Positions 2,484 through 61,650 of a stretch of 64,000 nucleotides of DNA are shown here, one piece after another. How positions within the stretch are numbered: the stretch's first letter is position 1; each line of letters starts with the position of its first letter. Made by a program: the position numbers and the translations under genes. Under the pieces are notes generated by a model, which had not been told where the DNA came from, did no database searches, and saw nothing but the letters and a program-made list of their open reading frames with translations. The stretch comes from an uncultured Clostridia bacterium (lineage in GTDB: Bacteria; Bacillota; Clostridia; Lachnospirales; CAG-274): NCBI GenBank assembly GCA_944384195.1, contig CALWSK010000003.1, forward strand, positions 74,826 to 138,825. Direction: 5' to 3'.

Positions 2484-3362
2484 CTAGTTTATAAGCTCTG
2501 GATTTAAAATTGCTTTATAAAAATTATCATTAGATAGAGGAAAATTTGCTATACCCAAAATAGCATTTTCCACTATTGTTGGCGGAGTTGTTTCTATATT
2601 TAGCCTATCTATTTTTATACCAACTAAAAGCCCATTTTCTTTCCCAAGACTTTTAAAGGGAATTAATCTTATATCTGCCTTTTTGTCTACTTCTAATAGC
2701 ATATTAAGGTCATCTTCTTGTTTTTCATAAAATATAAGCCTTAGTTTTTCTGGTAATATAGTCTTTATAGCTTCAAACTCCACTATAGTAACTGGTTTTT
2801 TTGTTATAGGTTCTTTTAAGGAATTTCCGGTATCTAAAAGAGCATTTAAACTTATGTTTTTTCCGTTTTTATCAATTATAATATTATAAAAACTTTGTTT
2901 TTTTACTACTACTTTTCTATAAGTTTTTAGGAAAATTTTAAGCATTATATATGTAAAAAGAGTGGAAAAAATAAGTATTTTTATCGGGAAATTTTCTAAA
3001 GTAAAGCTTAAAATCGCTCCTATCTTTGTGTAAAAAAATAAAGACATAGAAAGCCCACCTATACAAAAAGCTACTATATTAGTTACAAAAAATAAATATA
3101 AAAAATTTTTGATACTCCTTGGATTAAAAGCTAGCTTTATAGATAATGAAAATATTAGTATAGGTAAACTTAGACTAAAAACTCTGTTATAAGGAATAAA
3201 AACTACTGTTATAATATATAAAAAGGCAGTAATGAATGATACAAATAAAAGCCTCTTTAAAGATACTCTATTTTTTTGTAGTTTATTTACCACAAAAAAT
3301 ATAAAATATATCATAAAAAAATTTATAAAAAACAAAATATCAAGATAAATTTCTATTTGCAT
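2484..3362 (-). CDS. spoIIGA: sigma-E processing aspartic peptidase
   Basis: IYLDILFFINF N-terminus, about 5 TM segments, catalytic LLDTGN motif, IPFKSLG; upstream of sigE. Confidence 0.92.
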   Translation of the reverse strand: MQIEIYLDILFFINFFMIYFIFFVVNKLQKNRVSLKRLLFVSFITAFLYIITVVFIPYNRVFSLSLPILIFSLSIKLAFNPRSIKNFLYLFFVTNIVAFCIGGLSMSLFFYTKIGAILSFTLENFPIKILIFSTLFTYIMLKIFLKTYRKVVVKKQSFYNIIIDKNGKNISLNALLDTGNSLKEPITKKPVTIVEFEAIKTILPEKLRLIFYEKQEDDLNMLLEVDKKADIRLIPFKSLGKENGLLVGIKIDRLNIETTPPTIVENAILGIANFPLSNDNFYKAILNPELIN

Positions 3363-3453
3363 CTAACACCTCCACCAGAGCTTTTATAAATATTATATAT
3401 ATACTAAGTGGAAAAATTTGTTATATTATAGCTATATTTTAAAAAATAAAAAT

Positions 3454-3476
3454 AAAAAAAAAGAGCTATAAGCTCT
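3454..3476 (-). terminator. probable intrinsic terminator after the ttcA-like gene
   Basis: Minus strand AGAGC-TTATA-GCTCT followed by a T run. Confidence 0.55.
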
Positions 3477-3486
3477 AATTTTTATA

Positions 3487-4317
3487 TTATCTATCATAAT
3501 CATCTAAAAAGTTATATTTGTCCCCATTTTTATGGTATCCTATAACTGTGCTAAGATTTATATTTTCTACACTATTAAAAATATTTTTCTCTATATTTGG
3601 ATTATTTTCTCTAAGGCTTCTTATAAGCGCTTTTACATTTTGCCTTGTAGAACCACTTTCATATTTATTTTCATAATCTATATTTTCTGTAAAACGACAA
3701 CCACATCTTAAAAATTCTAAGTTATGATATCTAGCAAAAGCTATAATATCTTCTTCTCTTACCATATACATAGGACGGATAAGCTCCATTCCCTCAAAAT
3801 TTTTGCTATGTAGCTTAGGCATCATAGTTTGCACCTGACCACCATATAGCATACCCATAAGAATAGTTTCTATAACGTCATCAAAATGATGCCCAAGAGC
3901 TATCTTATTACAGCCAAGCTCTTTTGCTTTGCTATATAAATGTCCTCTTCGCATTCTAGCACAAAGATAACAAGGGTTTTGCTCTATATCAAATACTATA
4001 TTAAAAATTTCTGTTTCAAAAACTGTTATAGGTATATTTAGTTTTTTTGCATTTTCCAAAATCAGCTCATAATTTTTTTGATTATACCCAGGGTTCATAA
4101 CTATAAACTCTAAACCAAAATGGAATTTTCCGTGTTTTTGTAGCTCTTGCATAAGCTTAGCAAGTAGCATAGAATCCTTCCCGCCAGATATACAAACTGC
4201 TATTTTATCATTTTCTTTTATAAGCTCATATTTTTGCACACCTTTTATAAATCCACGCCATATATTTTTTCTAAATTTTTTTATTATACTTCTTTCAATA
4301 TCTGTATGTTTTTCCAA
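3487..4317 (-). CDS. ttcA: tRNA 2-thiocytidine biosynthesis TtcA-family PP-loop ATPase
   Basis: PP-loop SGGKDS, CYLCARMRRG (CxxC), IALGHHFDD, CGC motif. Confidence 0.8.
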   Translation of the reverse strand: MEKHTDIERSIIKKFRKNIWRGFIKGVQKYELIKENDKIAVCISGGKDSMLLAKLMQELQKHGKFHFGLEFIVMNPGYNQKNYELILENAKKLNIPITVFETEIFNIVFDIEQNPCYLCARMRRGHLYSKAKELGCNKIALGHHFDDVIETILMGMLYGGQVQTMMPKLHSKNFEGMELIRPMYMVREEDIIAFARYHNLEFLRCGCRFTENIDYENKYESGSTRQNVKALIRSLRENNPNIEKNIFNSVENINLSTVIGYHKNGDKYNFLDDYDR

Positions 4318-4329
4318 AATATTCCTCCT

Positions 4330-5679
4330 TTATCTTTTTAATTGTGCTACGCATTCTATATGACAAGTCATACAAAACATATCCACCGGTTGTAGCTTTT
4401 CTAATCTAAAACCATATTGTTTTAAATAAGCTATATCTCTAGCAAGTGTAGAATTATCGCAAGATACATAAACTAATTTTTTAACCTCTGTTTTTCCTAT
4501 AGCATCTAAAAGAGCTTTATCACAACCTTTTCTAGGCGGGTCCACTACTATAGTATCTGGGACTATCCCCTCTTTAAATATAAGATTTGGTATAACTTCT
4601 TCAGATTTACCTACTAAAAATTTAGCATTTTCTATTTTATTTTCTTTAGCATTTTGTTTTGCATTTTCTATAGCATCTTCTATAATTTCTATACCATATA
4701 CCATTTTACATTCTTTAGCTAAAAATAAAGATATAGTCCCTATGCCACAATAAGCATCAAAAACTATTTCATCTTTGCTAAGCTGGCAATAATCAAGAGC
4801 CGTTTTATATAAAATTTCTGTTTGTACTTGATTTATTTGATAAAATGATAATGGAGAAATATTAAATTTTAAATCTTTTATATAATCTGTTATATATCCC
4901 TTACCATATATAGTTTTAGTTTTATCCCCTAAAATAACATTTGTATTTTTTGTATTAAAATTTAAAACTATAGTAGCAATGTTTTCTATATCTTTAAGAG
5001 CCAAAACAAGCTCATTTTCATATGCAAAACTCTTAGCATTTATCACAAGACAGACCATAACCTCGCCTGTTTTATTCCCTACTCTAGTTATTATATGTCT
5101 TAATATACCTTTTCCGGTTTTCTCGTCATATACGCTAATATTATTAATTTCTATAAATTTTCTAAGTTTTGCTATAATAGGTTCATTTATAGGACTTTGT
5201 ATTATACAATTTTCTATATTCACTATATTATGAGAACGTGGCTTATAAAATCCTATTTTAAGATTATCTTGATAAGATATAGGAAAGCTTGCTTTATTTC
5301 TATAAGCTAAAGGATTTTTCATTCCCATAGCTCTTTCAACATTAAAATCAAGATTAGCAATTTTCTTAAGATTAGACTTTATAAAATTAGTTTTTATATC
5401 TAATTGATAGTCATAGTCTATATGTAAAAGAGAGCAACCACCACAAGCTCCAAAATGCTCGCAGATAGGCTCTATTCTTTTTTCTGATTTTTTTATTATT
5501 TCTATAAGCTTACCATAAGCAAAATTTTTATTAACTTTTAAAATTTTTATCTTTACAAACTCACCTGTAATAGCTCCATTTATAAATATAGGGAAATTAT
5601 CTATTTTTGCTATACCCTCTCCATTTATGCCTATATCTAAAATTTCTACTTCTAAAAAATCATTTTTTTTTATTTCCAT
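4330..5679 (-). CDS. rlmD: 23S rRNA (uracil-1939-C5)-methyltransferase with TRAM domain
   Basis: TRAM N-terminus, Fe-S motif CEHFGACGGC, SFYQIN, DAYCGIG, VDPPRKG, VYVSC, DMFCMTCHIE. Confidence 0.92.
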   Translation of the reverse strand: MEIKKNDFLEVEILDIGINGEGIAKIDNFPIFINGAITGEFVKIKILKVNKNFAYGKLIEIIKKSEKRIEPICEHFGACGGCSLLHIDYDYQLDIKTNFIKSNLKKIANLDFNVERAMGMKNPLAYRNKASFPISYQDNLKIGFYKPRSHNIVNIENCIIQSPINEPIIAKLRKFIEINNISVYDEKTGKGILRHIITRVGNKTGEVMVCLVINAKSFAYENELVLALKDIENIATIVLNFNTKNTNVILGDKTKTIYGKGYITDYIKDLKFNISPLSFYQINQVQTEILYKTALDYCQLSKDEIVFDAYCGIGTISLFLAKECKMVYGIEIIEDAIENAKQNAKENKIENAKFLVGKSEEVIPNLIFKEGIVPDTIVVDPPRKGCDKALLDAIGKTEVKKLVYVSCDNSTLARDIAYLKQYGFRLEKLQPVDMFCMTCHIECVAQLKR

Positions 5680-5782
5680 TTTTATTTCCTTTTTCTTTAT
5701 TTAAAAGTTCTTTTATGGCTTTTGCCAATATTTTTTCATCTGTCTTATTTAGTATTTTTTCTATATTTTCTTTTTTATCCAT
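5660..5782 (-). CDS. unannotated 40-aa small protein (MDKKENIEKILNKTDEKILAKAIKELLNKEKGNKNGNKKK)
   Basis: ATG at 5782 preceded by AAAGGTG 5 nt upstream; open to TGA at 5660-5662; overlaps the rlmD start by 20 nt. Translated by hand; below the track cut-off. Confidence 0.6.
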   Translation of the reverse strand: MDKKENIEKILNKTDEKILAKAIKELLNKEKGNKNGNKKK

Positions 5783-5793
5783 ATATACACCTT

Positions 5794-6345
5794 TTAAGAT
5801 AACTTTCTATAAAATTCACATACTGTATGCCTACAAATGCAATATTTACAATGAGTAAAACTGCAAGTAGGATTACCTTTGCCAGTTTTTAGCATATGTC
5901 TCATATCTGATAAAACTTTAAAAAAATATTTCCTAAGCCTTCTTGTATTTTTTATTCTAAAGCAGTAATCTTTATAAACTAGTTTTCCTTCTTTTACTCT
6001 ATGCCCATATAAATCTTCTATAATAATAAAATATGCCACAAGTTGCATAAGATCGCCAAGGTGTGGCATAGGGTCATCTTTTATACTTCCACTTTTTAGC
6101 TCTATAGGATAATAGCTATTAAATCTTTTAAATATATAATCTGGCTTTCCTTGTATGTTATATTTTTCTGAATATAAAATTTTCTTATATATTACATTAT
6201 CTTCTTTTTCTTTAGTATTTTGGTCTGTATAAAAAAGTTTATATCCAAGGGGAACAATATTTTTATATTTAGATTTTTTTATGGCATTTTTTTTACTATA
6301 GATAAGCCAAAAAACAACAACTACTAAAATAAATATTATCCACAT
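5794..6345 (-). CDS. Cas4-like PD-(D/E)XK nuclease, C-terminal half, with N-terminal transmembrane helix
   Basis: Hydrophobic start MWIIFILVVVVFWLIY then basic SKKNAIKK; GKPD (motif II), IELKSG (motif III ExK), QLVAY (QxxxY), C-terminal CKYCICRHTVC cysteine cluster. Confidence 0.8.
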   Translation of the reverse strand: MWIIFILVVVVFWLIYSKKNAIKKSKYKNIVPLGYKLFYTDQNTKEKEDNVIYKKILYSEKYNIQGKPDYIFKRFNSYYPIELKSGSIKDDPMPHLGDLMQLVAYFIIIEDLYGHRVKEGKLVYKDYCFRIKNTRRLRKYFFKVLSDMRHMLKTGKGNPTCSFTHCKYCICRHTVCEFYRKLS

Positions 6346-6647
6346 AGCTTAAGCACTAGCGCAAGAGCTATAATAAGAGAAAGCACTATAAATACTATCA
6401 TAAGATTTTTTACAGCTCCCATACGCCTTTTTATATTAAAACTATCGTGAAACTCAAGTCCACGTTTAAAGTTATTAAAAGTATCGTCTACTTCTTGTTG
6501 TTTATTTAGTTTTTTAGGTTGTTTTTTGTTTTTATATTTCTCTAAAATATATTTTCTGCCATAAAGCCTTTCATAATACCAGCCATATTCACAAAAACAA
6601 TATCTATTTATTTCACTTGCTGATATTTTTTCGCTATCATTATTCAT
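6336..6647 (-). CDS. Cas4-like nuclease, N-terminal half, with C-terminal transmembrane helix
   Basis: ISASEINRYCFCEYGWYY resembles the Cas4 N-terminal YxYC segment; RGLEFH resembles motif I (GxxxH); C-terminal hydrophobic LMIVFIVLSLIIALALVL. Confidence 0.75.
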   Translation of the reverse strand: MNNDSEKISASEINRYCFCEYGWYYERLYGRKYILEKYKNKKQPKKLNKQQEVDDTFNNFKRGLEFHDSFNIKRRMGAVKNLMIVFIVLSLIIALALVLKLCG

Positions 6648-7584
6648 AATTAGATTTTCTTAGGTTTCTAGCTAACATTTTATGATAGCCAACCCAGTTC
6701 CCATTTGTATTATCTGATAAAATATTTTCTTCAAATATTTTTATTTTTGCATCTAGCTCATCTGCACAATGCAATATAAAAGCTTCTATTGTTTTTGGTC
6801 TTTTAGGAGAACCAAATTCATATTCCCCGTGGTGTGATAAAATACTATGTTTTATAAGACTTTGTAACTGATGAGGAAATCCTTCTATTTTATTGGATTC
6901 TTTTGTTACAAGCTCTGTCCCAATAACTATATGTCCTAGAAGTTGTCCATCATCTGTATAGTCATTATCTGGAAAAGGAGATAGCTCAAATATTTTTCCT
7001 ATATCATGTAAAAGAGCAGAAGCTATAAGCAAATCTCTATCTACATATTCATAATGACTAGATAAAAAGTCGCAAATTTGACATATAGAAAGACTATGTT
7101 CTAAAAGCCCTCCCATATAGTTATGGTGCATAGTCTTAGCGGCAGAATGTTTTTTAAAAACAGAAACTAGCTCATTATTTTTTATATATATATTTTCTAA
7201 AAGCTCTTTTATATATTTATTTTTTATACTAGCTATTAAATCTAATATTTGTTTATATAATTGTTCTATATTTTTATCTGTAGCTGGAATATAGTCCATA
7301 GGCTCAAATTCGCCTTCTAAACTACGTCTTATTTTTTTAACATTAAGTTGTAGCTCATTTTGATAAGATAAAACAACACCTTCTATTTTTATAAAATCAT
7401 TTTCTTCAAAACTTTGTATATTATTATTTAAATCCCATACTTTAGCATTTATTGTACCTGTTTTATCTTGCAATAATAAAGAAAGATAATTTTTTCCAGA
7501 ACGCGATTTTAGAGTTTGCTTTTTTTTGCAAAGATAGTGTTCTACAACCATCTCATCTACTTTTAAATCTGCTATATATCTCAT
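6640..7584 (-). CDS. yhaM: 3'-5' exoribonuclease YhaM/Cbf1 family (OB fold plus HD domain)
   Basis: OB-fold N-terminus (LQDKTGTINAKVWD), HHNYMGGLLEH, LLHDIGK, HSILSHHGEYEFGSP. Confidence 0.9.
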   Translation of the reverse strand: MRYIADLKVDEMVVEHYLCKKKQTLKSRSGKNYLSLLLQDKTGTINAKVWDLNNNIQSFEENDFIKIEGVVLSYQNELQLNVKKIRRSLEGEFEPMDYIPATDKNIEQLYKQILDLIASIKNKYIKELLENIYIKNNELVSVFKKHSAAKTMHHNYMGGLLEHSLSICQICDFLSSHYEYVDRDLLIASALLHDIGKIFELSPFPDNDYTDDGQLLGHIVIGTELVTKESNKIEGFPHQLQSLIKHSILSHHGEYEFGSPKRPKTIEAFILHCADELDAKIKIFEENILSDNTNGNWVGYHKMLARNLRKSNYE

Positions 7585-7634
7585 TTTAAATCCTCCATAA
7601 ATTTTATATTATAAATATACTATGTATAACAATA

Positions 7635-8576
7635 TTAGTCAAATTTTTTAAGAGCTTTATTACAACCATAATCATATAATTTTCCCTGATATCTATTTTC
7701 ATCTTTCATCTTTTTTTCTATTTGTTCTTTTATCTTCCACCAACTAGTTCCCCAATTAGAAAACAATGTAAACTCTTCTGGTGCTCTTCCTATTATTCTT
7801 TGTATCGCTATATCTGGGTTTAGATATTCTAAAAAAGTAATAGTCTTTTCTATGTAGTCTTCTAAAGGCAACATAGTAAATTCTCCGTTTTGATATTCTC
7901 TAGCTAATACTGTGTTTTTTTCTATATATAAGGCGTGTAACTTTACAAAATCGTTTCCTAAAACGGATATTATTTTTGCTGTTTCTATAGTATCTTCTAT
8001 ATTATCCCAAGGAAAATTTAATATAATGTGAGTACAAATATTAAAACCATAACTTTTTATAAGCATACAAGCTTGTATATATTCTGCAAGAGTATGTCCC
8101 CTTCTTATCTTATCTAATGTTTTGTAATTAGCAGTTTGTAAACCAAGTTCTATAGTAATATCTATATTATATTTTTCTTTTATTTCTTTTAAAAAATCTA
8201 AGTATGGCTTATCTATGCAATCTGGACGTGTAGATATAGATATATCTACTATATCTTCTATTATTGCCTCTGTTATATATTTTTTAAACAAATCTAATGA
8301 AATATATGTATTTGAATAGCTTTGAAAATAAGCTATAAACTTTTTAGCCTTATATTTTTTACTTATTTTCTCTTTATTTTTAAGAAGTTGTTCTTTTACA
8401 CTAAGATTTGCTGATAAATTTTCAAATCCAACTCCCTCATCTCCACAATAGCTACACCCTCCAAAACCAAGGTTTCCATCCCTGTTTGGACAGTTTGTTT
8501 CCTTTAATGATATAGGAAGTTTATAAACTTTTTCTTTATATTTTTCTTTTAAATATGTTGAGTATTCTCTATACAT
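7635..8576 (-). CDS. TIGR01212 (YhcC/YtqA) family radical SAM protein
   Basis: CPNRDGNLGFGGCSYC extended CxxxCxxC motif, YFQSYSNTY, STRPDC, IELGLQT. Confidence 0.88.
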   Translation of the reverse strand: MYREYSTYLKEKYKEKVYKLPISLKETNCPNRDGNLGFGGCSYCGDEGVGFENLSANLSVKEQLLKNKEKISKKYKAKKFIAYFQSYSNTYISLDLFKKYITEAIIEDIVDISISTRPDCIDKPYLDFLKEIKEKYNIDITIELGLQTANYKTLDKIRRGHTLAEYIQACMLIKSYGFNICTHIILNFPWDNIEDTIETAKIISVLGNDFVKLHALYIEKNTVLAREYQNGEFTMLPLEDYIEKTITFLEYLNPDIAIQRIIGRAPEEFTLFSNWGTSWWKIKEQIEKKMKDENRYQGKLYDYGCNKALKKFD

Positions 8577-8777
8577 AATATGCCTTTCTAAAAATTAAAT
8601 TTATATTTATGGAAAAAAATAATATTATCAATTTTGTATAATAGAAATATTATAAAATATAATAAGTATGACTATTTTTAAATTTTTTAATATTTGTTAT
8701 TAATAAATCATCTTATTTGTATATAACTAGTTAAAGATTATTATATTAAAATTATTAATTTTTTTCAATAAAAACTA

Positions 8778-8807
8778 TTGACAAAAATCTTAAGTTTTTG
8801 TTAATCT
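8778..8807 (+). promoter_or_regulatory. candidate sigma-A promoter for the topoisomerase operon, overlapped by an imperfect palindrome
   Basis: TTGACA at 8778 followed 17-18 nt later by TTAATC/TAATCT; the segment TTGACAAAAATCTTAAGTTTTTGTTAA is nearly self-complementary. Confidence 0.35.
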
Positions 8808-9083
8808 AAAAATCAGATAATTTTTTAAAATATATTTTTACAATAAATTTTTATTAAATATAATATAACTTATTTGTATTTTATCTTGCAAATAAATATC
8901 TAATAAGCTATACTATATTAAAAATTTATAATAATAAAATATTAATAATTATATATTATAAATTTATATTTTTTCTATTTTAAAATAGAATAATATATTT
9001 TATACTAATAATATTTTATAAATAAAAGAGCTTAAAAAATTTTAATCTAATTAATAAATGAATATAGAAAAAGGTAGGATTTT

Positions 9084-11072
9084 ATGGCAAAAAATAATAA
9101 AGAAAACATAAAAATTCAGTCTCAATATGGTAATGAGAGTATCACCTCTTTAAAAGGAGCAGATAGAGTAAGACTAAGACCTGCTGTAATATTTGGCTCT
9201 GATGGCATAGAAGGATGTAAACACTCTGTTTTTGAAATTTTGTCAAATTCTATAGATGAAGCTAGAGAAGGTTTTGGAAATTTGATAAAAATAGCCTACT
9301 ACAAGGATAAATCTATTCTTATAGAAGATAGAGGTAGAGGAATACCGGTAGACTTTAATCAAAAAGAAAACAAATATAACTGGGAACTTTTATTTTGTGA
9401 GCTATACGCTGGTGGGAAATATCTTAACAATAGTGGAGAAAACTATGAATTTAGCTTAGGGCTTAATGGACTTGGACTTTGTTCTACTCAGTATAGTTCT
9501 GAATATATGGACGTTGAAATAATAAGAGATGGCTATAAATATAATTTACATTTTGAAAAAGGAGAAAATGTAGGTGGTTTAAAAAAAGAAAAAACAACTG
9601 AAAAAACAACTGGAAGCAAAATACATTGGCGTCCAGATAGAGAAGTATTTACAGATATAGATATAGACACAGAATACTTTAAACAAATATTAAAAAGACA
9701 ATGCGTTGTAAATGCTGGTCTTAGCTTTGAGCTTTATATAGAAGAGGAAGATAAAACTTATACTTTCTGTTATAAAGAGGGTATAAAAGATTATATAAAA
9801 GAATTATCACAAGATAAAAACCTTACAGAACCTGTTTATTATAAAGCAGAGATGAAAGGAAAAGATAGAGAAGATAAAGAAGAATATAAGCTAAAGTTTG
9901 AGCTTAGTTTCTGTTTTAACAATGAAATAAATATTATAGAATATTATCATAACTCTAGCTTTTTAGAATATGGTGGTTCTCCAGATAAAGCTGTCAAATC
10001 GGCTTTTGTATATGCTATAGATAAATATATAAAAACTAATAATTTATATAAAAAAGATGAAAAGAAAATAACCTATAGCGACATAGAAGATAGCCTTATT
10101 ATAATTATAAATTCTTTTTCTACACAAACAAGCTATGAAAACCAAACTAAAAAAGCTATAACAAATAAATTTATTCAAGATGCTATGACAGATTTTTTAA
10201 AAGAAAATCTTGAAGTATATTTCATAGAAAATAAGCTAGATGCTGATAAGATAGCAAATCAAGTCCTTATAAATAAAAGAAGCCGAGAAACAGCAGAAAA
10301 AACTAGAATAAATATTAAGAAAAAACTTACTGGAAATATAGATATGACAAACCGAGTTGAAAAATTTGTAAATTGTCGCTCTAAAGATGCTAGTAAAAGA
10401 GAAATATATATAGTAGAAGGTGATTCTGCTCTTGGAGCTTGTATGCAAGGACGTGATGCAGAATTTCAAGGGATTATGCCAGTTAGAGGAAAAATACTAA
10501 ACTGTCTTAAAGCAAACTATGATAAAATATTTAATAGCGATATAATAACAGATTTAATAAAAGTCCTAGGTTGTGGAGTTGAGCTAAAAACAAAACATAA
10601 TAAAGACTTAAATAGTTTTGATATAAACAATCTTAGATGGGATAAAATAATAATATGTACTGATGCCGACGTTGATGGCTTCCAAATTAGAACTCTTATT
10701 CTAACTATGCTATATAGACTAGTGCCTACTTTAATAGAGGAAAAGAAAGTATTTATAGCAGAATCTCCTTTATATGAAATAACTTCTGGTAAAAAAACTT
10801 ATTTTGCATATTCAGAAAAAGAAAAACAAGATATAATATCAAAGCTAGATAACTACCATATACAACGTTCTAAAGGACTTGGAGAAAATGAACCAGAAAT
10901 GATGTGGCAAACTACTATGAACCCAAAAACAAGAAAACTAGTTCAAGTATTACCAGAAGATGTAGAAAAAACAAAAGATATGTTCGAAATGCTCCTTGGA
11001 GATAACCTAAAAGCAAGGAAAAAATATATAGAAAAAAATGGCTATAAATATATAGAACTTGCAGACTTATAA
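9084..11072 (+). CDS. type IIA DNA topoisomerase subunit B (divergent GyrB/ParE family)
   Basis: GHKL ATPase motifs EILSNSIDE, EDRGRGIPVD, GLNGLG; TOPRIM motifs VEGDSA, PVRGKILN, TDADVDG; QRSKGLGE. Confidence 0.92.
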   Translation: MAKNNKENIKIQSQYGNESITSLKGADRVRLRPAVIFGSDGIEGCKHSVFEILSNSIDEAREGFGNLIKIAYYKDKSILIEDRGRGIPVDFNQKENKYNWELLFCELYAGGKYLNNSGENYEFSLGLNGLGLCSTQYSSEYMDVEIIRDGYKYNLHFEKGENVGGLKKEKTTEKTTGSKIHWRPDREVFTDIDIDTEYFKQILKRQCVVNAGLSFELYIEEEDKTYTFCYKEGIKDYIKELSQDKNLTEPVYYKAEMKGKDREDKEEYKLKFELSFCFNNEINIIEYYHNSSFLEYGGSPDKAVKSAFVYAIDKYIKTNNLYKKDEKKITYSDIEDSLIIIINSFSTQTSYENQTKKAITNKFIQDAMTDFLKENLEVYFIENKLDADKIANQVLINKRSRETAEKTRINIKKKLTGNIDMTNRVEKFVNCRSKDASKREIYIVEGDSALGACMQGRDAEFQGIMPVRGKILNCLKANYDKIFNSDIITDLIKVLGCGVELKTKHNKDLNSFDINNLRWDKIIICTDADVDGFQIRTLILTMLYRLVPTLIEEKKVFIAESPLYEITSGKKTYFAYSEKEKQDIISKLDNYHIQRSKGLGENEPEMMWQTTMNPKTRKLVQVLPEDVEKTKDMFEMLLGDNLKARKKYIEKNGYKYIELADL

Positions 11073-11119
11073 TAAATTAAATAAAAGAAGAAAGGAGGGC
11101 TACCTAAGTAGCAAAATAT

Positions 11120-13282
11120 ATGTCAAATAACAATTATATACAACAAAATATAACAAAAACTCTAGAGCTAAACTATATGCCCTATGCTATGAGTGTTATT
11201 ATATCAAGAGCAATTCCAGAAATAGACGGATTTAAACCATCACATAGAAAACTGCTATATACTATGTATAAAATGGGACTTTTAAAAGGCAGTAGAACAA
11301 AATCTACAAATGTTGTAGGGCAAACTATGAAGCTAAATCCTCACGGGGATATGGCTATATACGAAACTTTGGTTAGACTAACTCGTGGCAATGATGCCCT
11401 ATTAACTCCTTTTATAGATTCTAAAGGTAATTTTGGAAAACAATATTCAAGAGATATGGCTTTTGCCGCATCTAGATATACAGAGGTTAAGCTAGATGAT
11501 ATATGTCAAGAAATATTTAAACATATAGAAAAAGATACTGTAGACTTTATAGATAACTATGATAGCACTATGAAAGAGCCAGTCCTATTCCCTACTACTT
11601 TTCCTAATATCTTAGTAACTAATAATCAAGGTATAGCAGTTAGTATGGCAAGCTCTATTTGTAGCTTTAACTTAAAAGAAGTCTGTCAAGCTACTATAAA
11701 ATTTATAAAAAATCCTAATGTAGATATAAAAAAATATTTAAAAGCTCCTGATTTTTCAAGTGGTGGAGAACTTATTTATAATGAAAAAGAGTTATCAAAT
11801 ATATATGAAACTGGAAGAGGAAGCTTTAAACTAAGGGGTAAATATAGATTTGATAAAAAAAATAGCCTTATAGAAATATATGAAATACCTTATACTACAA
11901 CTGTAGAAGCTATAATAGATAAAATAATAAGTCTTGTTAAACTTAATAAAATTAAAGAAATAAATGATATAAGAAATGAAACAGATAAAAATGGACTTAA
12001 AATAGCTATAGATATAAAAAAATCTGCTAATGTAGATTTACTTATGCATAAACTTTACACAATGACTCCTCTTAGCGATAGCTTTAGTTGTAATTTTAAT
12101 ATTCTTATAAACGCCGTCCCTAAAACTATGGGTATAAAAGAGATACTCTCTAATTGGTTAGATTTTAGAATAAATTGCATAAAAAGACAAACAAAATTTG
12201 ACCTTTCTAAAAAACAAGATAGACATCACCTACTTTCAGGGCTTTCTAAAATCTTATTAGATATAGATAAAGCTATAAGTATAATAAGAGAAACTACAGA
12301 AGATGCTAAAGTTATTCCTAATCTAAAAAAAGGTTTTGATATAGACGATAAACAAGCTGAATATATAGCAGAAATAAAACTTAGAAATCTTAATAAAGAA
12401 TATCTTCTTAAAAAAGTAGATGAAATAAGCAAAATAGAAGATGAAATAAAAAATCTTAAAAAAATATTAGAAGATGAAACACTTATAAAAGATATTATTT
12501 GTGATGAGCTAAAAGATATATCTAAAAAATATGGTAAAGCTAGAAAAACAGACATTATATATGAAGAAGAAATAAAAGAAATAGACGAAAATCAACTTAT
12601 AGAAGATTATAGTATAAAACTATTTATTACAAAGCAAAACTATTTTAAAAAGGTTAGTGCTATTTCGCTTCGTTCTTCTGGAGAACATAAACTAAAAGAA
12701 GATGACTATATTATTAAAGAAATAGAAGCTAGTAATAAATGTGAGCTGCTTTTCTTCTCTAATAAAGCAAATTTATATAAAATAAAAGCTTATGAAATGC
12801 AAGATGTAAAAGTTAGCAGCATGGGACATTATCTTCCTAATATTTTAGGTATGGAAGAAGATGAAAATATTATATATTTTACTACTACTATAGATTTTAA
12901 AGGAGATATGCTATTTGGTTTTGAAAATGGAAAAATGGCAAAAATTAGTCTAGATTTATATAAAACTAATAGAAAAAAATTATCTAATGTTTATAACTTA
13001 AAATCTAAACTAATATTTATTAAACATATCCTAGAAGATGAAGATATGTTGTTTATAAGAAAAGATGATAAAGCTATCCTTATAAATTCTAATCAAATAG
13101 AAAAAAAATCTACTAAATCAACTATGGGAACTAATGTATTTACTATTAAAAGAGATGATTTTATCACAAATATATTAGATTTAGATAAAATTAAAGATTT
13201 AGAACTTTCTCATTATAAAGAAAACAATCTTCCATCTAATGGACATTTTATATTAGATAAAGATAAAAAATATTTTAAATAA
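11120..13282 (+). CDS. type IIA DNA topoisomerase subunit A (divergent, ParC-like)
   Basis: RAIPEIDGFKPSHRK, NPHGD, catalytic AASRYTE; no recognisable GyrA-box (QRRGGKG) in the C-terminal domain. Confidence 0.9.
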   Translation: MSNNNYIQQNITKTLELNYMPYAMSVIISRAIPEIDGFKPSHRKLLYTMYKMGLLKGSRTKSTNVVGQTMKLNPHGDMAIYETLVRLTRGNDALLTPFIDSKGNFGKQYSRDMAFAASRYTEVKLDDICQEIFKHIEKDTVDFIDNYDSTMKEPVLFPTTFPNILVTNNQGIAVSMASSICSFNLKEVCQATIKFIKNPNVDIKKYLKAPDFSSGGELIYNEKELSNIYETGRGSFKLRGKYRFDKKNSLIEIYEIPYTTTVEAIIDKIISLVKLNKIKEINDIRNETDKNGLKIAIDIKKSANVDLLMHKLYTMTPLSDSFSCNFNILINAVPKTMGIKEILSNWLDFRINCIKRQTKFDLSKKQDRHHLLSGLSKILLDIDKAISIIRETTEDAKVIPNLKKGFDIDDKQAEYIAEIKLRNLNKEYLLKKVDEISKIEDEIKNLKKILEDETLIKDIICDELKDISKKYGKARKTDIIYEEEIKEIDENQLIEDYSIKLFITKQNYFKKVSAISLRSSGEHKLKEDDYIIKEIEASNKCELLFFSNKANLYKIKAYEMQDVKVSSMGHYLPNILGMEEDENIIYFTTTIDFKGDMLFGFENGKMAKISLDLYKTNRKKLSNVYNLKSKLIFIKHILEDEDMLFIRKDDKAILINSNQIEKKSTKSTMGTNVFTIKRDDFITNILDLDKIKDLELSHYKENNLPSNGHFILDKDKKYFK

Positions 13283-58611: not shown

Positions 58612-58646
58612 AAAAAGCCATATTGAAAATTTCAATATGGCTTTTT
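58612..58646. terminator. bidirectional intrinsic terminator with a 16-bp stem
   Basis: AAAAAGCCATATTGAA-AAT-TTCAATATGGCTTTTT. Confidence 0.88.
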
Positions 58647-58653
58647 ATATATT

Positions 58654-59580
58654 TTATTCAAAAAGTTCTGTAGATAAATATCTTTCTCCTGTATCTGGAC
58701 AAATAGCTACTATATTTTTTCCTTTATTTTCTTCAAGCTCTGCAAGTTTTCTAGCTATGCATACACTAGCTCCAGATGATATCCCAACTAATACTCCTTC
58801 TATTTTTCCAAGCTCTCTAGCAGTTTCTATAGCTTCCTCATTAGAAACTGTCATAACCTTATCTATAAGCCCAAGCTCTAATATAGAAGGAATAAAACCT
58901 GCTCCTATACCTTGTATCTTATGGGCTCCTGCTCTATTTTCAGTTATTATAGGAGAATTTTCTGGCTCTACTCCTATTATAGTTATATCTTTATTTTTTT
59001 CTTTTAAAATTTGTGCTATCCCTGTTATAGTTCCTCCAGTACCTATACCAGCTACTACTATATCTACATTTCCATCAGTATCATTTAATATTTCAAGAGC
59101 AGTACTTTCTCTATGGGCTTTAGGATTAGCCTTGTTGTCAAATTGTTGTAATATTATACTGTTTTCTATCTCTTTATTTAGCTCATTAGCCTTAGCTATA
59201 GCACCTTTCATTCCAGATTTTGCCTCTGTAAGAACAACCTCTGCACCAAGAGCTTTAACAAGTTTTCTTCTTTCTATGCTCATACTCTCTGGCATAACAA
59301 GAATTAACTTATATCCTCTAGATGCACATACAAAAGCAAGCCCAATACCTGTATTACCACTTGTAGGTTCTATTATTGTAGAATTTTTATTTATAATATT
59401 TTTTTCTTCAGCATCTTTTATCATAGAATAAGCAACTCTATCTTTTACGCTTCCTAAAGGATTAAAATATTCTAGCTTAGCTAAAATATCTGCTTTAAGA
59501 TTATATTTTTCTTTATATTTGTTAAGTTTTAATAAAGGCGTATTACCTATAAGTTCTGTTAAATTTTCATATATTTTCAT
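58654..59580 (-). CDS. cysK: cysteine synthase A
   Basis: IGNTPL, NPLGSVKDR (PLP Lys), EPTSGNTG, GTGGT, HKIQGIGAG, DTGERYLS. Confidence 0.96.
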   Translation of the reverse strand: MKIYENLTELIGNTPLLKLNKYKEKYNLKADILAKLEYFNPLGSVKDRVAYSMIKDAEEKNIINKNSTIIEPTSGNTGIGLAFVCASRGYKLILVMPESMSIERRKLVKALGAEVVLTEAKSGMKGAIAKANELNKEIENSIILQQFDNKANPKAHRESTALEILNDTDGNVDIVVAGIGTGGTITGIAQILKEKNKDITIIGVEPENSPIITENRAGAHKIQGIGAGFIPSILELGLIDKVMTVSNEEAIETARELGKIEGVLVGISSGASVCIARKLAELEENKGKNIVAICPDTGERYLSTELFE

Positions 59581-60666: not shown

Positions 60667-61650
60667 ATGGACGAAATAACTTTAAACCTTGTAAAAGAAT
60701 TTAATTTTAATCCAAAAAACGTATTTAAACAAAAATATATGTTAATATGCAAAACAGATAAAGGTGTAAAAATGATTAGAGCTATAAATCAAAGCACCGA
60801 TAAAATCATTTTTGTACATAATATAAAAGAATATCTTATAAATAAAGGTTTTAAAAATCTTGATAAATATTATCTATCTAAAGAAGGTAACCCATATGTC
60901 ATAAGCGAAGATAATATATATGTTATGACAGATTATTATCCATTTGAAGAATGCGACTTATCTAACAAACTTCATCTAGAAAAATCTATAAATCTACTTG
61001 CTAATTTTCACAAGTTAGTACAAAGTTTTAGCTATGATATAAATGATGATGATATAGAATTTATAGACCTTGCTAAAATATTTGAGAAAAAAATAGATAG
61101 TCTTGCTAAAATGAAAAAATTAGTATCAAAACAAAAAAATCTCACAGATTTTGAAATAAACTTTATAAAAAATTATAATTATTTTTATCAAAAAGCTAAT
61201 AATTCTTTAGAAATCATACTAAAATATAACTACCAAAATATAAATAAGTTAGCTAGAAAAAATAAAATGCTCTGCTATAATAGAGCAAAAGAAGATGCCA
61301 TATTTATAGGTGATAACGCATATCTTACACAAATGGAAAATTTAGACTTAAACCATTTTATATATGATATTGCCAGATTTTTATCTAGATATATAAAAAA
61401 ACATAAAGATAATAAAACAAGTCTAGAAGAAATTTTAACTACATATTCCAAAATAAACTATATAGACGGAAATCTTTTACCTATTTTGTATGCTCTTATA
61501 ACTTTTCCAGATAGATATATACAAACTTGCCAAGGTTTCTTTGAGAGAAGAAGAACTTTTACTCCTATTTCATTATCTAGTCAAATGGATAATATACTTA
61601 GCCTTTTAGAGTTTGAAGAAGAATTTTTGAAAAAAATAAAACCTAAATAA
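60667..61650 (+). CDS. CotS-like spore coat protein (kinase-like fold, degenerate catalytic motifs)
   Basis: CKTDKG, HLINKGF-like segment, LANFHK, YDIARFL, LITFP; His/Asp catalytic loop residues are replaced. Confidence 0.65.
   Translation: MDEITLNLVKEFNFNPKNVFKQKYMLICKTDKGVKMIRAINQSTDKIIFVHNIKEYLINKGFKNLDKYYLSKEGNPYVISEDNIYVMTDYYPFEECDLSNKLHLEKSINLLANFHKLVQSFSYDINDDDIEFIDLAKIFEKKIDSLAKMKKLVSKQKNLTDFEINFIKNYNYFYQKANNSLEIILKYNYQNINKLARKNKMLCYNRAKEDAIFIGDNAYLTQMENLDLNHFIYDIARFLSRYIKKHKDNKTSLEEILTTYSKINYIDGNLLPILYALITFPDRYIQTCQGFFERRRTFTPISLSSQMDNILSLLEFEEEFLKKIKPK

Follow-up and report, generated by a model that had tools for sequence, protein, structure and literature searches.

A candidate two-subunit, membrane-anchored nuclease of the Cas4 family encoded outside CRISPR loci in Clostridia

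Cas4 proteins are RecB-type PD-(D/E)XK nucleases with an iron-sulfur (Fe-S) cluster. The characterised enzymes are metal-dependent exo- and endonucleases of single-stranded DNA that act mostly in the 5'-3' direction. In AddB and Dna2, four cysteines, one N-terminal and three C-terminal, hold an Fe-S cluster that staples the nuclease domain. Some Cas4 proteins are encoded outside CRISPR loci, and the roles of these proteins are an acknowledged open question (PMC5704561; PMC13621843). Here we describe 2 adjacent genes, A and B, in a 64-kb stretch of contig CALWSK010000003.1 (positions 74,826 to 138,825; hereafter the window) from an uncultured Clostridia bacterium. We consider it probable that A and B encode 2 subunits of a single Cas4-family nuclease, the gene of which is split inside the domain, and that this nuclease, in concert with YhaM, works on the ends of nucleic acids from a position at the inner membrane face.

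The closest described system is Cas4 itself (COG1468/TIGR00372/PF01930; structures 8d3l, 4r5q of Pcal_0546, and 4ic1 of SSO0001), which has the same fold as the pair and the same elements: the Asp, ExK and QxxxY motifs, the C-terminal cysteines, the Cys helix, and GxxxH. It differs in that the domain of the pair is divided over 2 polypeptides, each with a predicted transmembrane helix, and in that B carries one more conserved Cys as well as an added YTDQ segment. Unlike CRISPR-associated Cas4, the pair has no array, cas1, or cas2 found near it, and its operon partner is yhaM. A phylogenomic survey of Cas4 reported a monophyletic solo-Cas4 in most Thermoanaerobacterales, which, like the pair, lies outside CRISPR loci and is apparently vertically inherited (Hudaiberdiev et al. 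2017, PMC5704561); its main text makes no mention of a split, a partner gene, or membrane helices. The B family includes proteins of Thermoanaerobacter kivui and Caldanaerobacter (40-44% identity) that carry a Cas4 annotation and probably represent this same solo-Cas4 clade. A different solo-Cas4-like lineage (DUF2779) was described in Mycoplasma in 2026 (PMC13621843).

Other nucleases share single features with the pair. The AddB/RecB-family, Dna2, and MGME1 nucleases have the PD-(D/E)XK core in common with it; their domains are soluble, single-chain, and usually fused to or partnered with a helicase, whereas only one form of the pair, on a Bacillus subtilis plasmid, adjoins a helicase. RNase Y of Firmicutes is also a cytoplasmic nuclease on an N-terminal membrane helix, and the pair has a link to RNA turnover through YhaM. 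RNase Y differs in its unrelated HD/KH fold and its single chain, and no evidence ties the A/B pair to it. Literature searches, which leave out most subscription journals, returned nothing relevant on split Cas4, membrane-anchored Cas4, or YhaM with Cas4, and no described nuclease in which 2 tail- or signal-anchored proteins share out the cluster ligands and active-site residues of one domain. The split, membrane-anchored Cas4 pair appears to be undescribed; a prior description is possible.

Both genes are read from the minus strand, with A upstream of B. Their features, in window coordinates and with the basis of each in brackets, are as follows:

6336..6647, minus strand: gene A, 103 amino acids (aa), candidate tail-anchored subunit with the N-terminal part of the Cas4 domain (list of open reading frames, ORFs)
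6558..6626, minus strand: A residues 8-30, helix ISAsEIN..YC.Y.WYY..YG, in which Cys19 is the presumed first Fe-S ligand (conservation, PDDEXK_1)
6447..6461, minus strand: A residues 63-67, GxxxH with the presumed metal-binding His of RecB motif I (conservation)
6351..6407, minus strand: A residues 81-99, predicted C-terminal transmembrane helix, N-in and C-out (hydropathy 3.4, charges)
6336..6345, minus strand: overlap of 10 nucleotides (nt), ATGTGGATAA, with the stop codon of A and the start codon of B (read from sequence)
5794..6345, minus strand: gene B, 183 aa, N-terminal membrane anchor (predicted) and Cas4 catalytic core (ORF list, TIGR00372)
6298..6342, minus strand: B residues 2-16, predicted N-terminal transmembrane helix, N-out and C-in (homologs, charges)
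6220..6231, minus strand: B residues 39-42, family-specific YTDQ (Y39 and D41 invariant)
6139..6150, minus strand: B residues 66-69, GKPD with the Asp of nuclease motif II (invariant)
6094..6102, minus strand: B residues 82-84, ELK, the ExK of motif III (E82 and K84 invariant)
6031..6045, minus strand: B residues 101-105, QLVAY, a QxxxY motif (Q101 and Y105 invariant)
5818..5850, minus strand: B residues 166-176, cysteine cluster C-x2-C-x-C-x4-C (70 of 74 pairs)

A first-pass annotation, made from the DNA letters and their ORFs, had read this locus as a Cas4-like Fe-S nuclease split into 2 genes, each with its own membrane anchor. The 2 ORFs, their motifs, and the 10-nt overlap lie where it had placed them.

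Protein A contains, in order, MNNDSEKISASEINRYCFCEYGWYYERLYG, FNNFKRGLEFHDSF, and NLMIVFIVLSLIIALALVLKLCG. Its residues 8-25 read ISASEINRYCFCEYGWYY, RGLEFH occupies residues 62-67, and the hydrophobic C-terminus (residues 81-99) is NLMIVFIVLSLIIALALVL. Across 77 clusters of the A family, G63 and H67 show no variation, and C19, W23, Y24, and Y25 are at least 90% conserved. Searched by itself, A gives nothing significant among Pfam and NCBIfam models; there is a weak match of residues 8-31 to positions 2-25 of Pfam PDDEXK_1 (E = 0.075). The best match of the 77-cluster A profile among 177,635 PDB sequences is the N-terminal Cys helix of the Cas4 protein Pcal_0546 (E = 1). In hhalign, with a bona fide type I-D Cas4 from a Pseudanabaena plasmid (flanked by cas6, cas1d, and cas2) as reference, A residues 6-23 fall on Cas4 residues 2-19 (E = 1.7e-4), and the alignment ends at residue 23, short of the GxxxH region. 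Canonical Cas4 carries GTDLH after the Cys helix and before the first core strand, and G63-x3-H67 of A stands at the corresponding place. We presume, from order and motif and not from alignment, that the GxxxH of A is the counterpart of this motif-I His.

The match of B to Cas4 is direct. B scores 81.0 bits on NCBIfam TIGR00372 (cas4), for which the cut-off is 65, and is matched by the Cas4 models of PADLOC at 81 bits. Its residues 40-173 fall on positions 120-244 of the 247 of PDDEXK_1 (21.4 bits, just under the cut-off of 22), and hhalign places residues 49-170 on residues 55-174 of the type I-D Cas4 (probability 98%, E = 8e-14). The N-terminus of B, MWIIFILVVVVFWLIY, is followed by a lysine-rich stretch and then by YTDQ; a hydrophobic N-terminus is present in every aligned B homolog. 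The invariant Y-x-D of YTDQ sits in a segment of ~30 residues that links the membrane helix to the Cas4 core, outside the region aligned by hhalign and without counterpart in canonical Cas4. In 74 distinct A/B pairs, the set that also underlies the topology and spacing figures given below, the listed motifs of both proteins are at least 95% conserved. As sequence comparisons, the motif and profile features of the pair stand far beyond chance.

The 2 proteins complement each other on Cas4-type profiles. When A(1-76) and B(17-183) are joined in silico without their hydrophobic segments, PDDEXK_1 is aligned end to end (2-244 of 247), and the score on this model rises from 21.7 to 30.6 bits on joining A to B. 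Similarly, a join of A(1-76) and B(48-183) extends the coverage of the TIGR00372 model from 33-179 to 2-179. These gains support a reading of A and B as complementary parts of one Cas4-type domain, in which A matches the start of the profile and B the remainder. An AlphaFold2 model of the concatenated pair, built on an unpaired alignment of 20 A rows and 40 B rows, has an overall predicted local distance difference test (pLDDT) score of 86.5, with the B part above 95; without an alignment, the score is 48. The top Foldseek matches of the model are 8d3l_I (type I-C Cas4, E = 8e-5) and 7mi5_A (type I-G Cas4), and further matches include MGME1, Pcal_0546 (4r5q), SSO0001 (4ic1), RecE, and AddAB. 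Profile alignment of each half and structural comparison of the B part both lead to Cas4, as had been expected of the 2 halves.

The division of the domain is a property of a family and not of one genome. The lengths of B homologs, among 100 listed, are 147-202 aa. In T. kivui, Defluviitalea saccharophila, and [Clostridium] colinum, a gene of 90-98 aa, alignable with A, overlaps the start of B. Scanning one genome per species added 80 further loci. Taking together the window, the earlier loci, and the scan, A lies directly upstream of B in all 82 loci that can be assessed, that is, those with enough upstream DNA (4 further loci are cut by a contig end). Even in a distant branch, where B is ~32% identical, an uncalled A gene of 93 aa lies 5 nt upstream. 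The A family was counted with a profile, compared exhaustively with 1.84 billion cluster representatives, since a word-indexed search with A yields 7 relatives only; it comprises 114 clusters (50% identity) of 49-150 aa, with a sole exception of 281 aa, and has no Pfam or NCBIfam model. In all, the split is kept in more than 100 lineages of Clostridia. At the junction, the genes of relatives lie up to 24 nt apart or overlap by up to 23 nt, and B is found in all 3 frames relative to A. Such variation in length and frame excludes a frameshift site common to the family and suggests that 2 genes are translated in the ordinary coupled manner. Programmed frameshifting to yield a fusion was considered as well and is ruled out by the same variation among species. 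The proposal that the split is a genuine two-gene arrangement is upheld by these loci and their varied junctions.

Nature has also produced the joined form. P0135 (281 aa) holds, in one chain, an A part, a transmembrane helix, a GREK loop, a second transmembrane helix, and a B part. It belongs to a clade of 7 clusters (P0135 and P0220-P0225) of 275-292 aa, which are 57-82% identical to P0135 and found on many contigs; in these proteins, a hairpin of 2 transmembrane helices with a loop of 3-4 residues joins the A and B parts. With canonical Cas4 as the root, a rough neighbour-joining tree of the B domain nests the fused clade among split forms, and the sister of this clade, P0088, is split. The fusion thus appears to be secondary, and split forms appear ancestral to the fused clade; this speaks for A and B acting as a unit. 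Among the comparative evidence for such a unit, we regard the natural fusion as the strongest. It also suggests that the 2 hydrophobic segments form a hairpin. For the window, the condition that the first-pass annotation had set for its own refutation, that homologs would be single polypeptides, does not hold: single chains make up one small clade among split forms. In the homolog survey as a whole, the split is kept, with this clade as the exception, and so are the predicted transmembrane helices. At 3 fused-clade loci (L086, L091, and L092), yhaM lies directly upstream, as it does in the split sister P0088, and relA/spoT lies downstream on the opposite strand. In L092 (3050-4008), yhaM is called as 2 ORFs (179 and 140 aa), and in the near-identical L091 it is one gene of 315 aa; the two-ORF form is probably a frameshift or sequencing error of that contig.

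The genes around the pair bear on its role. Its conserved neighbours in the window are as follows:

6640..7584, minus strand: yhaM, 3'-5' exonuclease with an oligonucleotide/oligosaccharide-binding (OB) fold and an HD domain; its stop overlaps the A start by 8 nt, 6640-6647 (Pfam HD, tRNA_anti-codon, PRK13480)
5660..5782, minus strand: conserved lysine-rich ORF of 40 aa between B and rlmCD (aligned with C. colinum and Defluviitalea)
4330..5679, minus strand: rlmCD/trmA-type TRAM and uracil-5 RNA methyltransferase gene, last of the conserved cluster (Pfam)

YhaM is a Mn-dependent 3'-5' exonuclease that acts on RNA and single-stranded DNA in Bacillus and streptococci. We examined the neighbours in 85 related loci: yhaM is directly upstream of A in 74 (median gap 11 nt), and an rlmCD-type methyltransferase gene is downstream of B in 73 (median gap 17 nt). 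The cluster yhaM, A, B, (small ORF), and rlmCD/trmA-type gene runs in one orientation in about 70 species. The small ORF overlaps the methyltransferase gene by 20 nt and has a tblastn match in 10 loci, with the motif ..E..L...D..LAKA...L..; it has no family match. The wider surroundings (window 2484-13282) form a housekeeping block with genes for a SpoIIGA-type peptidase, a TtcA-like PP-loop ATPase, the rlmCD-type methyltransferase, YhaM, and a radical-SAM protein. After the radical-SAM gene come an ORF of 662 aa that reads like gyrB and one of 720 aa, presumed to be gyrA. The same gene order is found in C. colinum and the closest uncultured relatives, and Pfam support for gyrB comes solely from the corresponding position in the C. 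colinum locus. As far as tested, the pair lies outside any CRISPR locus, as had been proposed: the 64-kb window has no CRISPR-like direct repeats, and none of its 10 ORFs in the size range of Cas1 has a Cas1 domain. A role for the pair in CRISPR adaptation is unlikely.

The named hosts are all Bacillota: Anaerotignum, Tyzzerella, Defluviitalea, and Epulonipiscium (Lachnospirales), Thermoanaerobacter and Caldanaerobacter, and Bacillus plasmids. A suggestion in the first-pass annotation that similar two-gene arrangements occur in other phyla is not borne out among the named loci, in which the one departure is a contig labelled as Sodaliphilus sp., a Bacteroidota genus (CAVHYX010000016.1). This contig carries an Anaerotignum-type yhaM-A-B-rlmCD operon and is probably a binning error, not evidence of the pair outside Bacillota. 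The Bacillus copy is carried by a 64-kb B. subtilis plasmid (NZ_OX419581.1, L088:1143-1881), where an A of 81 aa and a B of 162 aa lie 4 nt apart in an operon of helicase, a 77-aa hypothetical protein, A, B, hfq, thermonuclease, and toprim genes; the pair is also plasmid-borne on OX419568.1 and CP120602.1. Here, the context is that of a mobile element, with a helicase partner in place of yhaM.

The likeliest of the alternative explanations is that the pair is a device for defence against, or exclusion of, phages and plasmids: a membrane nuclease that cuts entering DNA. The Cas4 family has links to defence, a position at the membrane would suit an attack on DNA as it enters, and the plasmid copy lies beside helicase, thermonuclease, and toprim genes. 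On the chromosome, the evidence runs the other way. In about 70 species, the pair belongs to a housekeeping operon whose surroundings include genes for gyrase, tRNA modification, and sporulation. No defence gene adjoins it, and PADLOC returns only generic matches to Cas4, Cas3-HD, and similar domains. The plasmid-borne B has no match in 50,697 phage records. In the 2017 survey, solo-cas4 genes are vertically inherited and under ordinary selection pressure (PMC5704561). We consider defence or exclusion of entering DNA improbable overall; it suits the plasmid copy better than the chromosomal one. The action on incoming DNA that was first suggested for the pair finds no support in the genomic context of this organism. 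Our best guess, from synteny, is housekeeping end-processing together with YhaM.

A second alternative, which we hold to be slightly less likely again, concerns the division of labour between the proteins: B alone would be a working nuclease with its own four-Cys cluster, and A an accessory protein in the membrane, for example an adaptor, a regulator, or an inhibitor, rather than a structural part of the catalytic domain. The cysteines of B, C166-KY-C169-I-C171-RHTV-C176, keep the spacing 0, 3, 5, 10 in 70 of the 74 pairs. C166, C169, and C176 align with the Cx2Cx5C of the Cas4 structure 8d3l, and C171 is an additional conserved Cys. Four conserved cysteines in one chain could allow B to bind an Fe-S cluster by itself, B passes the cas4 cut-off unaided, and a solo-Cas4 of Methanosarcina mazei remains active without its cluster (PMC13621843). 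The first-pass annotation placed the first Fe-S Cys in A and the C-terminal ones in B, which holds; it counted three in B, where there are four, and its statement that all 4 ligands come together only upon pairing is left unproven by the four within B. Against B as a self-sufficient enzyme, A supplies exactly what B lacks relative to canonical Cas4, namely the Cys helix and GxxxH, with residues that do not vary and in the order seen in Cas4; A raises the PDDEXK_1 score of B and completes the profile; and the A part comes before B in the natural fusions. The canonical set of one N-terminal and 3 C-terminal cysteines is complete only across both proteins (C19 of A with C166, C169, and C176 of B), and the 2 together have 5 conserved cysteines, compared with four in that set.

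A third alternative is that the hydrophobic segments are not anchors: the N-terminus of B would be a cleaved signal peptide of a secreted nuclease, or the segments would form a soluble hydrophobic zipper. The stretch in B is indeed short (a median of 16 uncharged residues) and at the extreme N-terminus. However, the charges next to the segments follow the pattern of cytoplasmic domains, with a median of 5 lysines and arginines in the 15 residues before the A helix and likewise 5 in the 15 residues after the B helix. Hydropathy is 2.7-3.4, typical of membrane helices (medians of 2.9 for the A segment and 2.7 for the B segment), the fused proteins show a unit of 2 transmembrane helices with a short loop, and cytoplasmic maturation is expected of an Fe-S nuclease. 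This alternative is very improbable. Each half has a predicted helix in all 74 pairs, in agreement with the initial proposal that each has its own anchor. As the flanking lysines and arginines are on the domain side, both soluble parts are predicted to be cytoplasmic, and the 2 helices would be antiparallel, as if a hairpin had been severed in its outer loop; the tails on the outer side are short (medians of 6 residues in A and 8 in B). From His67 to the A helix there are 13-15 residues (interquartile range), and from the B helix to Y39 there are 21-22. This tight spacing suggests that the active site keeps a fixed place with respect to the membrane.

The last alternative is that an ordinary single-chain Cas4 gene only looks split, through a frameshift or an assembly error, or because it is a decaying pseudogene. 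It could appeal to the out-of-frame overlap of A and B and to the single-chain form found elsewhere, and yet it is already refuted by the survey and has next to no likelihood: the contigs of 4 independent public runs from 4 studies (chicken gut, gut, and faeces metagenomes) have no substitution or indel over 5700-6800, so that the split is no assembly or sequencing artefact, and both halves are strongly conserved and separate at every assessable locus, across differing junctions and frames, with the fused forms a small clade nested among them.

We therefore return to the reading of A and B as 2 subunits of one membrane-anchored Cas4-family nuclease, against which several observations weigh. 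Beyond the Cys helix, the match of A to Cas4 is weak, with a PDB E value of 1 and an hhalign alignment that stops at residue 23, so the equivalence of His67 to the Cas4 metal ligand is based on order and motif. B has 4 conserved C-terminal cysteines, where canonical Cas4 has three. AlphaFold2 fused both membrane helices into one helix of 65 residues, which holds the halves apart. Further, yhaM is absent at the Thermoanaerobacter and Caldanaerobacter loci (kdpD adjoins in T. kivui) and at the plasmid copy, so the YhaM link is not universal. The searched literature has no biochemical evidence for the A/B family. On the other side, the strict co-occurrence of A and B and the natural fusions support an association between the proteins, as far as gene content can indicate one.

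The mechanism that would follow for the two-subunit nuclease has several steps. A would give the N-terminal helix with the first cluster Cys (C19) and the GxxxH helix with the presumed metal-binding His67, and B would give the beta-sheet core (D69, E82, K84, Q101, and Y105) and the C-terminal cysteines. The overlapping A and B genes are probably translationally coupled and co-expressed with those of YhaM and the RlmCD-type methyltransferase. The helix pair, and probably an Fe-S cluster bridging both chains, would bring the halves together at the membrane. The assembled active site would then lie within 15-22 residues of the inner membrane face. There, the likeliest activity would be a housekeeping one, in which the nuclease and YhaM trim or degrade the ends of single-stranded DNA or RNA.

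Two further ORFs on the plus strand of the window, of 327 aa (60667-61650) and 264 aa (58637-59431), have no Pfam match at E <= 1e-5; the latter overlaps an ORF of 308 aa on the opposite strand (58654-59580).

These observations have consequences for the annotation and the biology of non-CRISPR Cas4 proteins. Members of this clade are annotated merely as "Cas4" or left as unannotated "hypothetical protein", and B genes are misleadingly named "CRISPR-associated". The pair offers a concrete entry to the roles of Cas4 outside CRISPR: a large conserved clade, a divided catalytic domain, and yhaM as a fixed partner. Tentatively, and with clearly less confidence than we place in the two-subunit nuclease, we suggest that an Fe-S cluster shared by 2 separately inserted membrane proteins may make assembly dependent on cluster availability or redox state. 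Such a nuclease would be gated by iron, oxygen, or stress and, with YhaM acting on 3' ends, would form a membrane-proximal machine for nucleic-acid ends in Clostridia. If true, this machine would be previously unrecognised and would give solo-Cas4 its first defined cellular role. In addition, the pair may be useful as a natural split-enzyme system and provides a lead to nucleic-acid processing at the membrane.

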